Of a DNA stretch of 4,305 bases, positions 446 through 4,019 are shown in pieces. The notes beneath the pieces were generated by a model. That model did not search any database. It saw only the letters and a list, made by a program, of their open reading frames with translations, and was not told where the DNA came from. Every line of letters begins with the position of its first letter. The first letter of the stretch is position 1. Source of the DNA: a virus (taxonomy: Duplodnaviria > Heunggongvirae > Uroviricota > Caudoviricetes); IMG/VR virus record IMGVR_UViG_2531839207_000033; one strand, written 5' to 3'. The position numbers and the translations under genes are program-made.

Positions 446-471
446 AAAAAACAAAACCCGCGAAGCGGGTT
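446..471 (-). terminator. Rho-independent terminator of the restriction-modification operon
   Basis: Plus strand 455..471 is AACCCGC-GAA-GCGGGTT, a perfect 7-bp stem with a 3-nt loop. Read on the minus strand the hairpin is followed directly by TTGTTTTTT (454..446). It lies 72 nt downstream of the endonuclease stop at 544. There is no T-run after it on the plus strand, so it is orientation-specific for minus-strand transcripts. Confidence 0.6.
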
Positions 472-543
472 AGTAAAAATGTACTGAAGTCAATGACGTG
501 CCATCACAGTTAAAATATGACAGACTCTATTTACGTAGAGATG

Positions 544-1422
544 TCAGACTGCAAGATCCAAGGGAAGATCAGAAATATCCTTTAATCTTTTACCATTAAC
601 CATCACGGAAAGCATGTCAGCTGCATCGCTGAGCCCCAGTATTTCAACTGCTGATATAAGTTCATAAAGCGCAAAATGATACACGCAATCTATATCACCA
701 GTACCAAGAGCAATAGACGCCAGACGACTTGGAGTAGGCTCAGCAGTAACAACCATTACATGAGGGAGATTTCCCTTACGGTTGCGAATAAGATTTAATG
801 CCTCAGAACGAGCATTCTGGGCCCGGTCGCTTCTTATTGTCCATTTGCAGGAAATACTTGCGTGTAATATTGGTTTCCCACCATTCGAACTCCTGAGAGC
901 TGACATGCGGGTAACAGAATCATCCACCAGTAATTCAGGACTGTTGATAACTTGATCACATTCAGGTTCTCTTTCAACAATAATATCTGGTGAAATCGTA
1001 TAATCACTCCCCAGTGCAGCAGCTAGCTGAGGATTACTTTTTGCAGCACTATCCAATGCTATAAGATGGGCATATTGTTCATATTTAGCTATCTCTAATC
1101 TGTTTCTACCAGAAACCTGATGTACATTCCATTTTCCAGGGCGTAAGTGGCTGAGTTTAAAAAAGGTTTTTTCTATAAACTCTGCGCAGATACTCTCAAA
1201 CTGATTACCAGATGTTTGCCCTGCAACACGTTCACCAATCGTTTCAGCCTGCAAGAAGCGAGCAATTTCTCTTGCTATAGCTTTACTGTTTTTGTTACTG
1301 CTATCTGCGTTACTAACAACTCCGGCAGTATTAATTGTGAGCGTATTCAGTAACAATTGGGCATGAAACTCCTTTCTGGCTTCAGCAAAACCAACTATGC
1401 TGTCAACCAAATCTCCATTCAT
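544..1422 (-). CDS. Type II restriction endonuclease, NgoMIV family (PD-(D/E)XK variant, CCGG-core recognising); 292 aa from the ATG at 1422
   Basis: Contains ...HASISCKWTIRSDRAQNARSE..., i.e. the S-x-K...E catalytic arrangement and the R-x-D-R CCGG-recognition motif of the NgoMIV/Cfr10I/Bse634I family, plus an upstream SPD acidic residue. Numbered from the ATG at 1422, the residues E76, D146, K193, R197, D199, R200, E207, and also D40 and R233, all sit exactly 6 positions after the NgoMIV residues as I recall them from the literature (E70, D140, K187, R191, D193, R194, E201, D34, R227). The ATG at 1422 is preceded by AGGA at 9-nt spacing and sits 13 nt after the methyltransferase stop. The ORF is also open for 45 codons further upstream (to 1557), overlapping the methyltransferase 3' end; that extension is judged non-coding. 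Confidence 0.85.
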   Translation of the reverse strand: MNGDLVDSIVGFAEARKEFHAQLLLNTLTINTAGVVSNADSSNKNSKAIAREIARFLQAETIGERVAGQTSGNQFESICAEFIEKTFFKLSHLRPGKWNVHQVSGRNRLEIAKYEQYAHLIALDSAAKSNPQLAAALGSDYTISPDIIVEREPECDQVINSPELLVDDSVTRMSALRSSNGGKPILHASISCKWTIRSDRAQNARSEALNLIRNRKGNLPHVMVVTAEPTPSRLASIALGTGDIDCVYHFALYELISAVEILGLSDAADMLSVMVNGKRLKDISDLPLDLAV

Positions 1423-1435
1423 TTCTGGATTTCCT

Positions 1436-2560
1436 TCAGGCTGCTTGACTATTCTTACTGATGTTATTCTTATACCGTCCCTGCAAAACTCCATACACAT
1501 ATTGTGCGATTTTTGCCGCAAATAGCGGTGGAACAGCATTCCCGATCTGCTTTGCAATCTCAGTTTTTGAACCGGTAAAAATGAAATTATCAGGAAAAGA
1601 CATTAATCTCGCTGCCTCACGATGAGTTATTGGCCGATCCTCTTCCGGATGTAAATATCGCCCTTTCTCCGGTTTGAAAAACTCAGTACGAATCGTTACT
1701 GAAGGTCTGTCCCACCACAGACGTCCAAACAAATCGGTCCCTCCAGATTTCTTTTTTAGCCAGCACGCCGGGGTTATATCAGGTCTTTTTTTCTGTAAAT
1801 CGAAACGGTTACCTCCTGGTGGAACCGCTTTATATCGCTCCAGAGAAACAGGTGTGGGATTACGCCCAAAATGTAAGTTCAGCGGAGGAAGTTCATTACG
1901 AATATCAGCTCCAACAGGAGCAGGTAAGTCACCAATTGCATCACGCGTACAGACCCATTCAGGCAAAGCGACATCCTTATCAGGGGAACGATGCGTTGGT
2001 GCTGGCGGGAACGCCGGAATACTATGCACATCGAAGAGTTCTCGTTTGATACCGATTGCTATCGTTCGTTTTCTTGTCTGAGGTACTCCATAGTCAGCAG
2101 TATTCAACACCATTGGATTAAGCAGAATAAAGCCCATGGATTTCGCTCTAAACGTAATGTCCGCAAACTCATCGCTTATCAGCAATCCGGGGACATTTTC
2201 CATGACGAACATACAAGCCCTTGAACGCTCAATGACATCCATATAAGGCTCCCACAATGCTCTTCGGTGATCACCATAACGATTCTTATTCAATAAACTG
2301 AATCCCTGACACGGGGGGCCACCTATGACCACATCAGCCTCAGGAACAGTATTGCTGGATGCCCACTCCTCAATATTTGCCTGAACTCCATGCAAACCAA
2401 AATTGGCATTGTAGGTATTTATAGCTGCAGCATTATTATCAATAGCAAGGATACTTTCAAAGTAGTCAGACATCTCTCCATGAAGAAAACCATAAGATAA
2501 TCCACCTGCCCCACAAAAGAGGTCTATCACTCTGAATTTATTTAATTCTTTCATCCGCAT
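1436..2560 (-). CDS. DNA (cytosine-5)-methyltransferase, the modification subunit of the Type II system; 374 aa
   Basis: Canonical m5C methyltransferase motifs in the right order: motif I DLFCGAGGLSYGF (AdoMet binding), motif IV GGPPCQGFS (catalytic Pro-Cys), motif VI FVMENVPGLL, motif VIII GVPQTRKRTIAIG, and C-terminal motif X QIGNAVPPLFA, with a long variable target-recognition region between VIII and X. The ATG at 2560 is preceded by GAGG at about 7-nt spacing. Motif I starts near residue 13, so there is no N-terminal regulatory extension. Confidence 0.9.
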   Translation of the reverse strand: MRMKELNKFRVIDLFCGAGGLSYGFLHGEMSDYFESILAIDNNAAAINTYNANFGLHGVQANIEEWASSNTVPEADVVIGGPPCQGFSLLNKNRYGDHRRALWEPYMDVIERSRACMFVMENVPGLLISDEFADITFRAKSMGFILLNPMVLNTADYGVPQTRKRTIAIGIKRELFDVHSIPAFPPAPTHRSPDKDVALPEWVCTRDAIGDLPAPVGADIRNELPPLNLHFGRNPTPVSLERYKAVPPGGNRFDLQKKRPDITPACWLKKKSGGTDLFGRLWWDRPSVTIRTEFFKPEKGRYLHPEEDRPITHREAARLMSFPDNFIFTGSKTEIAKQIGNAVPPLFAAKIAQYVYGVLQGRYKNNISKNSQAA

Positions 2561-2643
2561 CCATATGCCTCAGATTAATGTTGAGCGTCTTACAGGACGC
2601 GTAATGTTAACTGGGGCTTTCTCTATCTGCCTTTTGGTGTTCA

Positions 2644-2668
2644 TGCCTGAGGCAGACAGCCTCAGGCA
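2644..2668. promoter_or_regulatory. Perfect 10-bp inverted repeat (TGCCTGAGGC-agaca-GCCTCAGGCA): candidate operator or 5'-UTR stem-loop of the restriction-modification transcript
   Basis: Read directly from the sequence: arms 2644..2653 and 2659..2668 are exact reverse complements with a 5-nt spacer. It lies 2-4 nt downstream of the predicted transcription start of the promoter at 2678..2706. No flanking T-tract on either strand, so it is not a canonical intrinsic terminator. Confidence 0.5.
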
Positions 2669-2677
2669 CCCGCAGCA

Positions 2678-2706
2678 ATTCTACTTAACTCACGTCACCT
2701 CGCCAA
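2678..2706 (-). promoter_or_regulatory. Putative sigma70 promoter for the methyltransferase-endonuclease operon
   Basis: On the minus strand: -35 TTGGCG (2706..2701), a 17-nt spacer, then -10 TAGAAT (2683..2678). The predicted transcription start is near 2670, about 110 nt upstream of the methyltransferase ATG. It lies in the 178-bp gap between the queH-like stop (2739) and the methyltransferase start (2560). Predicted by eye only. Confidence 0.4.
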
Positions 2707-3425: not shown

Positions 3426-3578
3426 GAAAATAGCACAGAGTGTAGCATCAGAGCAGGGCTATCGGGAATATATGTCTAAATCTGGTAATATCTGGTTTTG
3501 ACGCAAAGCGGACAACCACGCTGGCTCTACCCTGCGCCATGAAAATGTCAATTCACATCTGAACTAATGCTCTTTAAT

Positions 3579-4004
3579 CTAGTAACGTCTAAAATACCTA
3601 ACATTTCCTTGATAAAATGCCAGTACACGCTGCATAGCTTCGCTCTTCCGGCACTCGCGACAGATTATATTCAGGCGCCTGTCGTAGCGGCGTATTTCGC
3701 CGTCTGGTAACGACCAGATAAGGTCCGGATCAACCACAACCGGTTTCTTCAGTTTTGCCCTCGATAGTTTTTTGCGGGCATTTTGCCAGTCCTTACGAGC
3801 CTGTTCAGACGGGAATAACCCGTAACCAGAGTTGTATACATCGCCACTGACAACCAGCTCTCTGGTGAGAACGCTCATCAGATATCTTGTCGCACCTGTC
3901 TTGGCTTCCAGTTGCCGCAACGTCTCGCGACCGCTCAGACGTACAAGTTCAACAACCTGCCCTTTAATTTTTTCCCGCTCTTCTTGTGTAAATGCTTTTG
4001 CCAT
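3579..4004 (-). CDS. Hypothetical protein with a probable N-terminal winged-helix DNA-binding fold; 141 aa from the ATG at 4004
   Basis: The listed ORF starts at a TTG at 4019, but the in-frame ATG at 4004 (MAKAFTQEEREKI...) is preceded by GGAGG at about 6-nt spacing. The N-terminal segment KIKGQVVELVRLSGRETLRQLEAKTGATRYLMSVLTRELVVSGDV has a helix-turn-helix-plus-wing pattern. The C-terminal part contains CRECRK. No family confidently recognised. Confidence 0.5.
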   Translation of the reverse strand: MAKAFTQEEREKIKGQVVELVRLSGRETLRQLEAKTGATRYLMSVLTRELVVSGDVYNSGYGLFPSEQARKDWQNARKKLSRAKLKKPVVVDPDLIWSLPDGEIRRYDRRLNIICRECRKSEAMQRVLAFYQGNVRYFRRY

Positions 4005-4019
4005 AAGCGCCTCCGGCAA

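Follow-up and report, generated by a model that had tools for sequence, protein, structure and literature searches.

The window analysed here, a stretch of 4,305 nucleotides, carries all of its genes on the minus strand, among them a C5-cytosine DNA methyltransferase gene (M) followed by the gene for an NgoMIV-family Type II restriction endonuclease (R) (Table 1). A preliminary description, made from the letters of this DNA, had read the two as a complete NgoMIV-type restriction–modification (R-M) operon with the methyltransferase first and the endonuclease 13 nt behind it. We found both genes to be real and intact at the positions it gave (ORFs 2560–1436 and 1422–544), and in that order. The spacing was read directly from the sequence: M stops with TGA at 1438–1436, exactly 13 nt (1435–1423) lead to the start of R, and an AGGA Shine–Dalgarno sequence at 1435–1432 lies 9 nt upstream of the R ATG.

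Table 1. Features of the R-M cassette and its hok/sok-derived flanks, in order of reading on the minus strand
Feature	Position	Strand	Basis
Sigma-70 promoter-like site, TTGGCG-17 nt-TAGAAT	2678–2706	minus	consensus scan; homologous to the site upstream of the hokD leader
Retained 5' part of the hok mRNA leader, ending in the mok Shine–Dalgarno GAGG (2571–2568)	2567–2671	minus	Rfam RF01794, alignment
M, C5-cytosine DNA methyltransferase gene	1436–2560	minus	374 aa; PF00145, TIGR00675, motifs
M–R spacer, with the AGGA Shine–Dalgarno for R	1423–1435	minus	13 nt; read from sequence
R, NgoMIV-family Type II restriction endonuclease gene	544–1422	minus	292 aa; PF09015, PDB, residue identity
Cassette-specific 3' untranslated stretch	473–543	minus	blastn breakpoints and alignments
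Intrinsic terminator-like hairpin AACCCGCTTCGCGGGTT followed by a T-run, the hok-locus terminator	445–471	minus	terminator scan

Identity and predicted specificity of the endonuclease

R had been assigned to the NgoMIV family, with a Pfam scan proposed as a check. That scan placed residues 19–292 on model positions 1–275 of 275 of PF09015 (NgoMIV_restric), with 423 bits for a cut-off of 23.2, and the PADLOC model REase_II scored 417 bits. At E <= 0.01, NgoMIV (1fiu/4abt) was the sole PDB match (E = 1e-118, 185/281 identical); Cfr10I, Bse634I and SgrAI gave no match at this threshold. Compared with R.NgoMIV of N. gonorrhoeae, R is 65% identical over 282 residues.

Analysing individual positions, we observed that the catalytic set of R (E76, D146, S191-C192-K193 and E207) is identical to NgoMIV E70, D140, S185-C186-K187 and E201, of which E70, D140, K187 and E201 are catalytic (PMC2532715). 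Its R197-S198-D199-R200 corresponds to NgoMIV R191, S192, D193 and R194, the R-x-D-R motif that reads the CCGG core (PMC3413111, PMC4652773). The outer G:C readers D34, Q63, S192 and R227 are likewise matched by identical residues, D40, Q69, S198 and R233; D34 and R227 are additional outer base-pair determinants specific to NgoMIV, beside Q63 and S192 (PMC4652773). The nine residues that the preliminary description had aligned to NgoMIV were thus all identical at an offset of +6, as were S185, C186, S192 and Q63, and the roles it gave them agree with these three papers; NgoMIV is 286 aa long, as it had stated. Its claim of a uniform offset held for the nine residues but not for NgoMIV residues 5–18, where a 1-residue indel near residue 19 shifts the offset to +7.

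Homologues of 292 aa that align over the full length back the R start proposed earlier, the ATG at 1422 (292 aa, stop at 546–544), and so does RefSeq in its annotation of an identical protein, WP_001012717.1, which is the R annotated in a RefSeq sister prophage. A longer ORF from TTG 1557 (337 aa) was rejected: its extension overlaps M and lacks homology, and the homologues are 292 aa long. R is, on its codon differences, under purifying selection (synonymous versus non-synonymous, 131 versus 48 against the Cronobacter gene and 14 versus 5 against the A34 allele of the cassette).

Because the catalytic, CCGG-core and outer G:C residues are all identical to those of NgoMIV, G^CCGGC rather than RCCGGY is the best prediction of R specificity; NgoMIV itself is strictly GCCGGC-specific, unlike Bse634I (PMC3413111). 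GCCGGC does not occur in the window, where 0.44–0.66 sites are expected, so that its absence is not meaningful.

Lineage of the methyltransferase

M scored 184.5 bits with PF00145 and 154.5 bits with TIGR00675. All six scored C5 motifs were present, as the preliminary description had it: I (FCGAGG), IV (PCQ) and VI (ENV) at residues 15, 83 and 121, and VIII (QTRKR), IX (REAAR) and X (GNAV) at residues 161, 314 and 340. Two ATGs, two codons apart, could start M: the one at 2560 (374 aa) lies 7 nt after GAGG and is GTG in the A34 allele, and the one at 2554 (372 aa) is the RefSeq start. M is 99% identical to E. coli cluster P0121 and to RefSeq WP_001427299.1, with the difference T218A, and shows 19 synonymous versus 11 non-synonymous codon differences against A34.

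The label 'NgoMIV-type operon' fits R but not M. Identity to M.NgoMIV is 24% and confined to the common C5 motifs (374 aa versus 312 aa), and among 80 loci seeded with R.NgoMIV, 77 had an M.NgoMIV-type methylase and only two the window type. Judged by sequence, M is therefore not an M.NgoMIV orthologue and belongs to another C5 lineage, which means that its exact target and methylated base are not transferable from M.NgoMIV. The source names of M homologues are all generic, with no characterised methylase among them from which to read a target; NCBIfam likewise has no specific model for R and, for M, only the generic dcm superfamily.

Both Cronobacter and a second, lambdoid phage contig (L088) have the same M lineage 13 nt upstream of an NgoMIV-family R, and in two cyanobacteria it also precedes such an R; elsewhere it is paired with an unrelated HNH nuclease, for example in Edwardsiella tarda (L089 3588–4568). 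C5 methyltransferases carry a variable target-recognition region between motifs VIII and IX, and in the M lineage this region is 62–81% conserved. We infer that M protects GCCGGC against R, because an intact R is stably linked to this lineage in E. coli, Cronobacter, the second phage contig and cyanobacteria. On a rather unlikely reading, an M lineage that partners both PD-(D/E)XK (NgoMIV-type) and HNH nucleases would point to an HNH enzyme, so far uncharacterised, with the same methylation target.

This partnership also bears on specificity. R could belong to the family yet have a different or relaxed specificity, cutting RCCGGY as Cfr10I and Bse634I do or another CCGG-containing site, with M covering a broader site. 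We regard this as improbable: it takes only a few residues to change specificity within the CCGG family (PMC3413111), M is not the NgoMIV methylase and its lineage also serves an HNH nuclease, but NgoMIV's strict outer G:C readers are all kept in R, the 65% identity extends over the full length and only NgoMIV passed the PDB threshold. GCCGGC thus stays the predicted site.

The hok/sok shell

Homology to the prophage hok locus breaks at window positions 472/473 and 2566/2567 (blastn and alignments), the leader homology ending at ...AATCTGAGGC in the alignments. The cassette between these points (approximately 473–2566) puts 2.09 kb of R-M DNA in place of a 287 bp mok/hok segment (within 3541–3827 of the sister prophage L002, whose hokD occupies the same slot). 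What has been exchanged for the cassette is the part of a prophage hok/sok locus that encodes mok and hok. On its 3' side, the stretch 473–543 was homologous neither to the hok locus nor to the cassettes of Cronobacter and L088, whereas the terminator hairpin beyond it has a homologue 3' of hokD in L002 and is conserved in A34. A match of Rfam RyhB at 448–505 (24 bits versus a gathering score of 55) was dismissed as a chance match to this hairpin.

The leader of approximately 105 nt now forms the 5' untranslated region of M. It scored 61 bits with RF01794 (gathering score 59), aligning well only at model positions 1–88, and the remainder of the alignment runs into M coding sequence; the intact hokD locus of L002 scored 120.5 bits over the full model. 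What the window has is thus a remnant of a hok leader rather than the whole element. The region folds with z = -3.6, giving a 5' untranslated region strongly structured around the ribosome-binding site. No Hok-like ORF is in the window ORF list, the mok/hok ORFs being absent; a simple consensus scan found no plus-strand promoter-like site for sok near 2490–2680; and the window lacks the 3' fold-back (fbi) element GCACCC that stands ahead of the terminator in L002. With the fbi element and sok promoter missing, hok-type RNA control is unlikely to survive.

Between the promoter-like site 2706–2678 and the start of the leader at 2671 lie 6 nt. An identical site lies in the hokD locus of L002 (3968 to 3940), and the A34 version reads TTGGCA-17-TAGAAT. 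It matches the consensus at 9/12 positions, and the window holds five promoter-like sites versus 6.5 expected in shuffled sequence; such matches being at chance frequency, we assign the promoter solely by homology to the hok loci. A second site inside M (2460–2432) could in principle drive R separately. The single promoter and shared terminator of the preliminary description hold in that promoter- and terminator-like sites flank the pair, but both come from the hok/sok locus and not from the cassette. A promoter-like block, GGGxATTTATACAGC...TAAATT, is conserved upstream in the Cronobacter chromosome and in L088; upstream of the E. coli cassette this native block is absent, with the hok leader there instead.

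Among 5,426 complete E. coli genomes, the R-M DNA, with one base different, occurs in 60, and 59 of these carry it at an identity of at least 99%. The junction of leader and M was observed in all 60 carriers, which include lambdoid prophages of O157:H7, O111 and O103, and the hok leader and terminator occur in 3,603 of the genomes, in up to seven copies each. In the A34 allele, window 453–2683 stands as a single block in another prophage backbone, with a gene other than queH upstream and the start of the unit close to the promoter. We therefore also discarded queH as part of the module, as it is present in 995 genomes versus 60 for the cassette and is absent beside the A34 copy. In the phage collection, the cassette was found in no phage record and the flanks alone matched. 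The labels 'DNA methyltransferase' and 'HNH endonuclease' in phage HannyBb belong to a 207-nt ORF and a 978-nt HNH gene beside the Q antiterminator, unrelated to the cassette. The annotation of the RefSeq sister prophage shows neither a controller (C) protein nor a vsr gene, whether inside the cassette or in the 15 kb around it.

Proposed role and comparison with known systems

Taken together, the locus is very probably a two-gene Type II R-M cargo of a lambdoid E. coli prophage, with an NgoMIV-like R, set in a hok shell. The M–R mRNA would most likely begin at the hok promoter-like site, because the cassette replaced the mok/hok part of the hok/sok locus; it would carry the hok leader, have M translated from the mok Shine–Dalgarno and stop at the hok terminator. 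M, translated first, would protect host and prophage DNA. R would most likely cut unmethylated G^CCGGC through its E/D/K/E active site, its R-S-D-R motif reading the CCGG core and the counterparts of D34, Q63, S192 and R227 the outer G:C pair. In a lysogen, the system is likely to restrict incoming unmethylated DNA and, as a second role, to stabilise the prophage by post-segregational killing.

Alternatively, M and R may owe their transcription to an internal promoter or to read-through that starts in queH or in the early-right operon of the phage, with the hok leader a functionless recombination scar. This is possible, although we doubt it. All window genes share the minus-strand orientation, the window scan found no terminator-like site between queH and M, and the hok promoter-like site is a 9/12 match of a kind found at chance frequency; however, that site and the leader start are conserved both in the intact hokD locus and in A34, whose backbone differs and whose unit begins near the promoter without queH upstream, and in an O157 prophage hokW-sokW is both expressed and functional (PMC8621323). 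That the hok fusion is itself functional, with the R-M operon domesticated behind the hok promoter, leader and mok ribosome-binding site, strikes us as rather unlikely. If it were, RNA structure or processing of the hok type would govern expression of M, and hence of R, and hok leaders and terminators, highly repeated as they are, would provide the homology arms through which defence or addiction cassettes swap between lambdoid prophages.

R could also be silent or non-functional in the lysogen, unexpressed or made only upon induction, with the locus serving above all to mark phage and host DNA through its methylase. The loss of the native upstream block and the strong structure around the M ribosome-binding site would fit this, as would the two-site requirement of NgoMIV-type (Type IIF) tetramers, which limits cutting of site-poor DNA (Table 1 of PMC3413111). 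Yet R is under purifying selection, keeps all catalytic residues and has a Shine–Dalgarno sequence of its own; it is also intact by annotation wherever inspected, with the R-M DNA nearly invariant across several serotypes. Neither M nor R bears a pseudogene flag in the carrier records inspected, and no listed carrier row names a disrupted gene. A silent R thus seems very unlikely compared with an active R-M cargo.

As an R-M pair, the system is ordinary, intact and of a known kind, and public genomes already name it correctly (RefSeq, 'NgoMIV family type II restriction endonuclease'). In that respect it is of little import: its family is large and well understood, and close relatives number in the thousands. 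Only the hok/sok shell of the cassette and an M unrelated to the classical NgoMIV methylase are unreported points; literature searches in E. coli, prophage, Shiga/O157 and methylome contexts returned nothing on this system, including cleavage or methylation data. Approximately 1% of complete E. coli genomes carry the cassette on a prophage, among them O157:H7 lineages and O111 and O103 Shiga-toxin strains, where it could alter susceptibility to phages, the efficiency of transformation and m5C patterns, which PacBio-based methylomes pick up poorly. Replacement of the hok locus offers a clean, datable case in which one addiction or defence module was swapped for another at a fixed prophage slot via conserved RNA-gene flanks, and is of some interest for the turnover of prophage cargo genes (morons).

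The closest characterised system, NgoMIV of N. gonorrhoeae MS11 (1FIU/4ABT; Type IIF, G^CCGGC), also has its methylase gene upstream on the same strand. It differs in that R is six residues longer at the N terminus with the one indel near residue 19, that R in Neisseria starts directly after the M stop rather than beyond a 13-nt gap, and that the window system is prophage-borne within a hok/sok shell. Cfr10I and Bse634I (R^CCGGY) and SgrAI share the PD...K...E active site and R-x-D-R core motif with R (PMC3413111); they gave no match to R at E <= 0.01 in the PDB search, and R has D34 and R227, reported as additional determinants of NgoMIV, which reads a non-degenerate outer pair (PMC4652773).

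Pairs in Cronobacter dublinensis, Pantoea and Cedecea combine the same two lineages as the window, with R 84–87% and M 72–80% identical, R again 292 aa and M 371–373 aa versus 374 aa here. In the copies checked, the 13-nt spacer is common to the window, Cronobacter and L088, whereas the Cronobacter chromosome and L088 cassettes keep their own upstream block where the E. coli cassette has the hok leader. Unlike the hokD and hokW-sokW loci, the cassette has no mok/hok ORF, detectable sok promoter or fbi element, but it has in common with them the promoter-like site, the first approximately 105 nt of leader, the mok Shine–Dalgarno and the terminator. It also occupies the same prophage slot, between the queH/DUF977 replication side and the DUF968/RusA/Q genes. 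Both hok/sok and R-M systems are able to act as post-segregational killers.

The endonuclease and its predicted site

Every gene in the 4,305-nt window lies on the minus strand, and reading the open reading frames bore out the preliminary description, coordinates included, of an intact restriction–modification (R-M) pair, in which a C5-cytosine methyltransferase gene (M) is followed by an endonuclease gene (R) after a 13-nt spacer with an AGGA Shine–Dalgarno sequence. Pfam scans agreed with the proposed families, with R covering its whole model (see table). In M, motifs I, IV, VI, VIII, IX and X were all found, and NgoMIV (1fiu/4abt) was the sole PDB match to R (E = 1e-118). The proposed R start is backed by the Shine–Dalgarno sequence, by full coverage of 292-aa homologues from Pantoea, Cronobacter and Cedecea and by the RefSeq annotation; a longer frame from TTG 1557 was rejected, its extension being without homology. 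For M, there is a two-codon ambiguity between ATG 2560, 7 nt downstream of GAGG, and ATG 2554, the RefSeq start; the divergent allele of E. coli A34 has GTG at the codon matching 2560.

We rebuilt the NgoMIV alignment and also recovered the full 286-aa gene from N. gonorrhoeae. R was 65% identical over 282 residues, with one 1-residue indel near residue 19. The uniform +6 offset claimed earlier holds from NgoMIV residue 20 to the C terminus and becomes +7 at residues 5–18. All nine residues singled out in that claim (E70, D140, K187, E201, R191, D193, R194, D34 and R227) are identical at +6, as are S185, C186, S192 and Q63 (NgoMIV numbering). The roles assigned to them agree with the literature: E70, D140, K187 and E201 form the NgoMIV active site (PMC2532715), CCGG is read by the R-(D/E)R stretch, and the outer pair is contacted by Q63 and S192, with D34 and R227 as extra determinants in NgoMIV (PMC4652773). 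Given these identities and published roles, G^CCGGC is the best prediction for the site of R.

Features of the cassette, its shell and prophage setting, and of related loci
Feature	Coordinates	Strand	Details
M, C5-cytosine DNA methyltransferase, 374 aa	2560-1436	minus	Pfam PF00145 184.5 bits; TIGR00675 154.5 bits
M stop TGA	1438-1436	minus	
R, 292 aa	ATG 1422, end 544	minus	Pfam PF09015 (NgoMIV_restric) 423 bits, whole model
Promoter-like site TTGGCG-17-TAGAAT	2706-2678	minus	common to L002
mok Shine–Dalgarno GAGG	2571-2568	minus	ends 7 nt before M ATG 2560
Terminator hairpin and T-run	hairpin 471-455	minus	homology to L002 resumes here
queH	2739-3404/3425	minus	epoxyqueuosine reductase, PF02677 221.5 bits
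DUF977	3579-4019	minus	ORF from TTG; shorter start in RefSeq
DUF1627	4020 onward, past window end	minus	
Small ORF (273 nt), then DUF968, RusA, antiterminator Q	beyond R end		
HNH-partner locus L089	3588-4568		
HNH-partner locus L091	1822-2829		
HNH-partner locus L092	3605-4573		

A methyltransferase of another lineage

The label 'NgoMIV-type operon' suits R and fails for M. M.NgoMIV (312 aa; N. gonorrhoeae locus L006, 2050-2985) shares just 24% identity with the window M, a likeness confined to the common C5 motifs, and in Neisseria it directly abuts R, unlike the spaced pair of the window. With R.NgoMIV as probe, an M.NgoMIV-type gene lay upstream in 77 of 80 loci, among them some whose R is 74–76% identical to the window R. 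By contrast, a window-type M (58% identity) appeared in just two of the 80, both cyanobacterial. Because R is so much closer to its NgoMIV counterpart than M is, and because nearly all probed loci carry the M.NgoMIV type, sequence comparison indicates that the methylase partner was swapped in the window lineage.

The window-type M also sits beside an NgoMIV-family R in Cronobacter, with an identical 13-nt gap, and on a second lambdoid contig (L088); in Cedecea, M and R homologues on contigs of equal length suggest the same pairing. In Edwardsiella tarda, Cycloclasticus and Idiomarina, M homologues with 67–73% identity are partnered by an uncharacterised HNH nuclease of about 325 aa, perhaps an unrelated enzyme directed at the same methylation target. 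Since the motif VIII–IX region is 62–81% conserved across the M homologues compared, with long invariant blocks, this lineage probably has a single target; from the linkage of M to an intact R, we infer that it must include GCCGGC.

A hok/sok shell around the cassette

In L002, a sister prophage of E. coli 4/1-1 that has no R-M genes, the same slot is occupied by the type I toxin gene hokD. Comparison by blastn and alignment (window 2567-2706 and 445-472; L002 3520-3970) placed the breakpoints at window 472/473 and 2566/2567, such that 2.09 kb of R-M DNA stands in place of 287 bp with mok/hok. Upstream, the two share queH, the promoter-like site and the first 105 nt or so of the hok leader as far as ...AATCTGAGGC, with the mok Shine–Dalgarno sequence included; the hok 3' fold-back element is lost. 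The Rfam sok/hok-leader model (RF01794) matches 2671-2491 with 61 bits against a gathering score of 59, convincingly only for model positions 1–88, compared with 120.5 bits for the intact L002 locus. No antisense (sok) promoter-like site was detected in the promoter scan of the window.

A single promoter and shared terminator, as originally proposed, are plausible, although the two signals that flank the pair are those of the hok locus, which would lend them to M and R. The promoter-like site matches 9 of 12 consensus positions, and such matches are no commoner in the window than expected by chance. The Cronobacter and L088 cassettes have a common upstream block, GGGxATTTATACAGC-N-AAAATATG-TAAATT (Cronobacter L086/L087 2700-2871; L088 2700-2868), which is probably a native promoter or operator. 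The E. coli cassette lacks this block, and its homology to these loci begins only at 2542-2565. Separately, the window sequence closest to the promoter consensus (TTGAAA-17-AATAAT, 10/12; 2432-2460, minus strand) falls within the 5' part of M and, if active, would yield transcripts without the M start.

The leader–M junction was present in 60 of 60 carrier genomes and the same 3' junction in 59. The A34 allele (97.2% identity) matches window 453-2683 as a single block, from the -10 box and leader through M and R to the terminator, on a different prophage backbone. Thus, with the native block absent, the junctions common to carriers and the A34 block on another backbone, R-M in a hok shell is a stable arrangement. 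The leader sequence occurs in 3,603 of 5,426 genomes, in up to seven copies, providing ample homology for exchanging cassettes. Upstream of R-M in A34 (L004 6016-7651), a 'Beta protein' gene (PF14350, 179 bits) and a 'sce7726 family' gene replace queH, possibly as a further cargo or defence pair.

Distribution and likely role

The window is a piece of an E. coli lambdoid prophage. Among 5,426 complete E. coli genomes, 60 carry the R-M DNA (544-2560), chromosomally in every case and with at least 99% identity in 59; they include O157:H7 (strain 9000, Z-series), O111, O103, O39 and non-STEC strains. As queH is found in 995 of these genomes, this tRNA-modification gene was rejected as a module member and assigned to the prophage backbone, as cargo adjoining the cassette. 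In strain OkiPb01684 (L003 4898-6111), an IS3-family element lies inside queH, with R-M intact next door.

In RefSeq, R already bears the name 'NgoMIV family type II restriction endonuclease' under WP_001012717.1, a protein identical to that of the window, and M is a 'DNA cytosine methyltransferase' (WP_001427299.1). Against the sister-prophage copy, the R-M DNA of the window has one base changed (nt 1909), which gives T218A in M immediately ahead of the conserved target-recognition blocks; tied bit scores among the best records suggest that the other best RefSeq copies are also one base away. R has at least 8,000 homologues at E <= 1e-10, the best 120 of which are 76–100% identical, with Enterobacterales, Burkholderia, Comamonas and Methylomonas among the sources. 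A literature search for a paper on this particular system found none. In the sister prophage with R-M (L001 1-29400), GCCGGC occurs 5 times, where an order-4 Markov model predicts 12.8 occurrences and base composition 6.8, a possible mild depletion on small numbers.

Synonymous to non-synonymous codon differences were 131:48 (versus Cronobacter) and 14:5 (versus A34) for R, and 19:11 (versus A34) for M; both genes are under purifying selection. No pseudogene flag was attached to either in any carrier record inspected, and R retains all its catalytic residues. Purifying selection, intact genes and kept catalytic residues support a functional system. The annotation of the surrounding region lists neither a controller protein nor a vsr gene. 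Type II systems restrict incoming DNA and stabilise the element that carries them, so this pair would likely restrict incoming DNA in lysogens and stabilise the prophage. Such stabilisation would be akin to the task of the displaced hok/sok module, of which an O157 prophage has a functional example (PMC8621323).

The preliminary observation is therefore confirmed and its interpretation essentially right. Beyond existing annotation, the non-orthologous methylase, the HNH partner of its lineage and the precise mok/hok replacement within a hok/sok shell are of modest interest and leave the kind of system unchanged: this is an ordinary representative of a very well-known family, and public genomes already annotate it as such.
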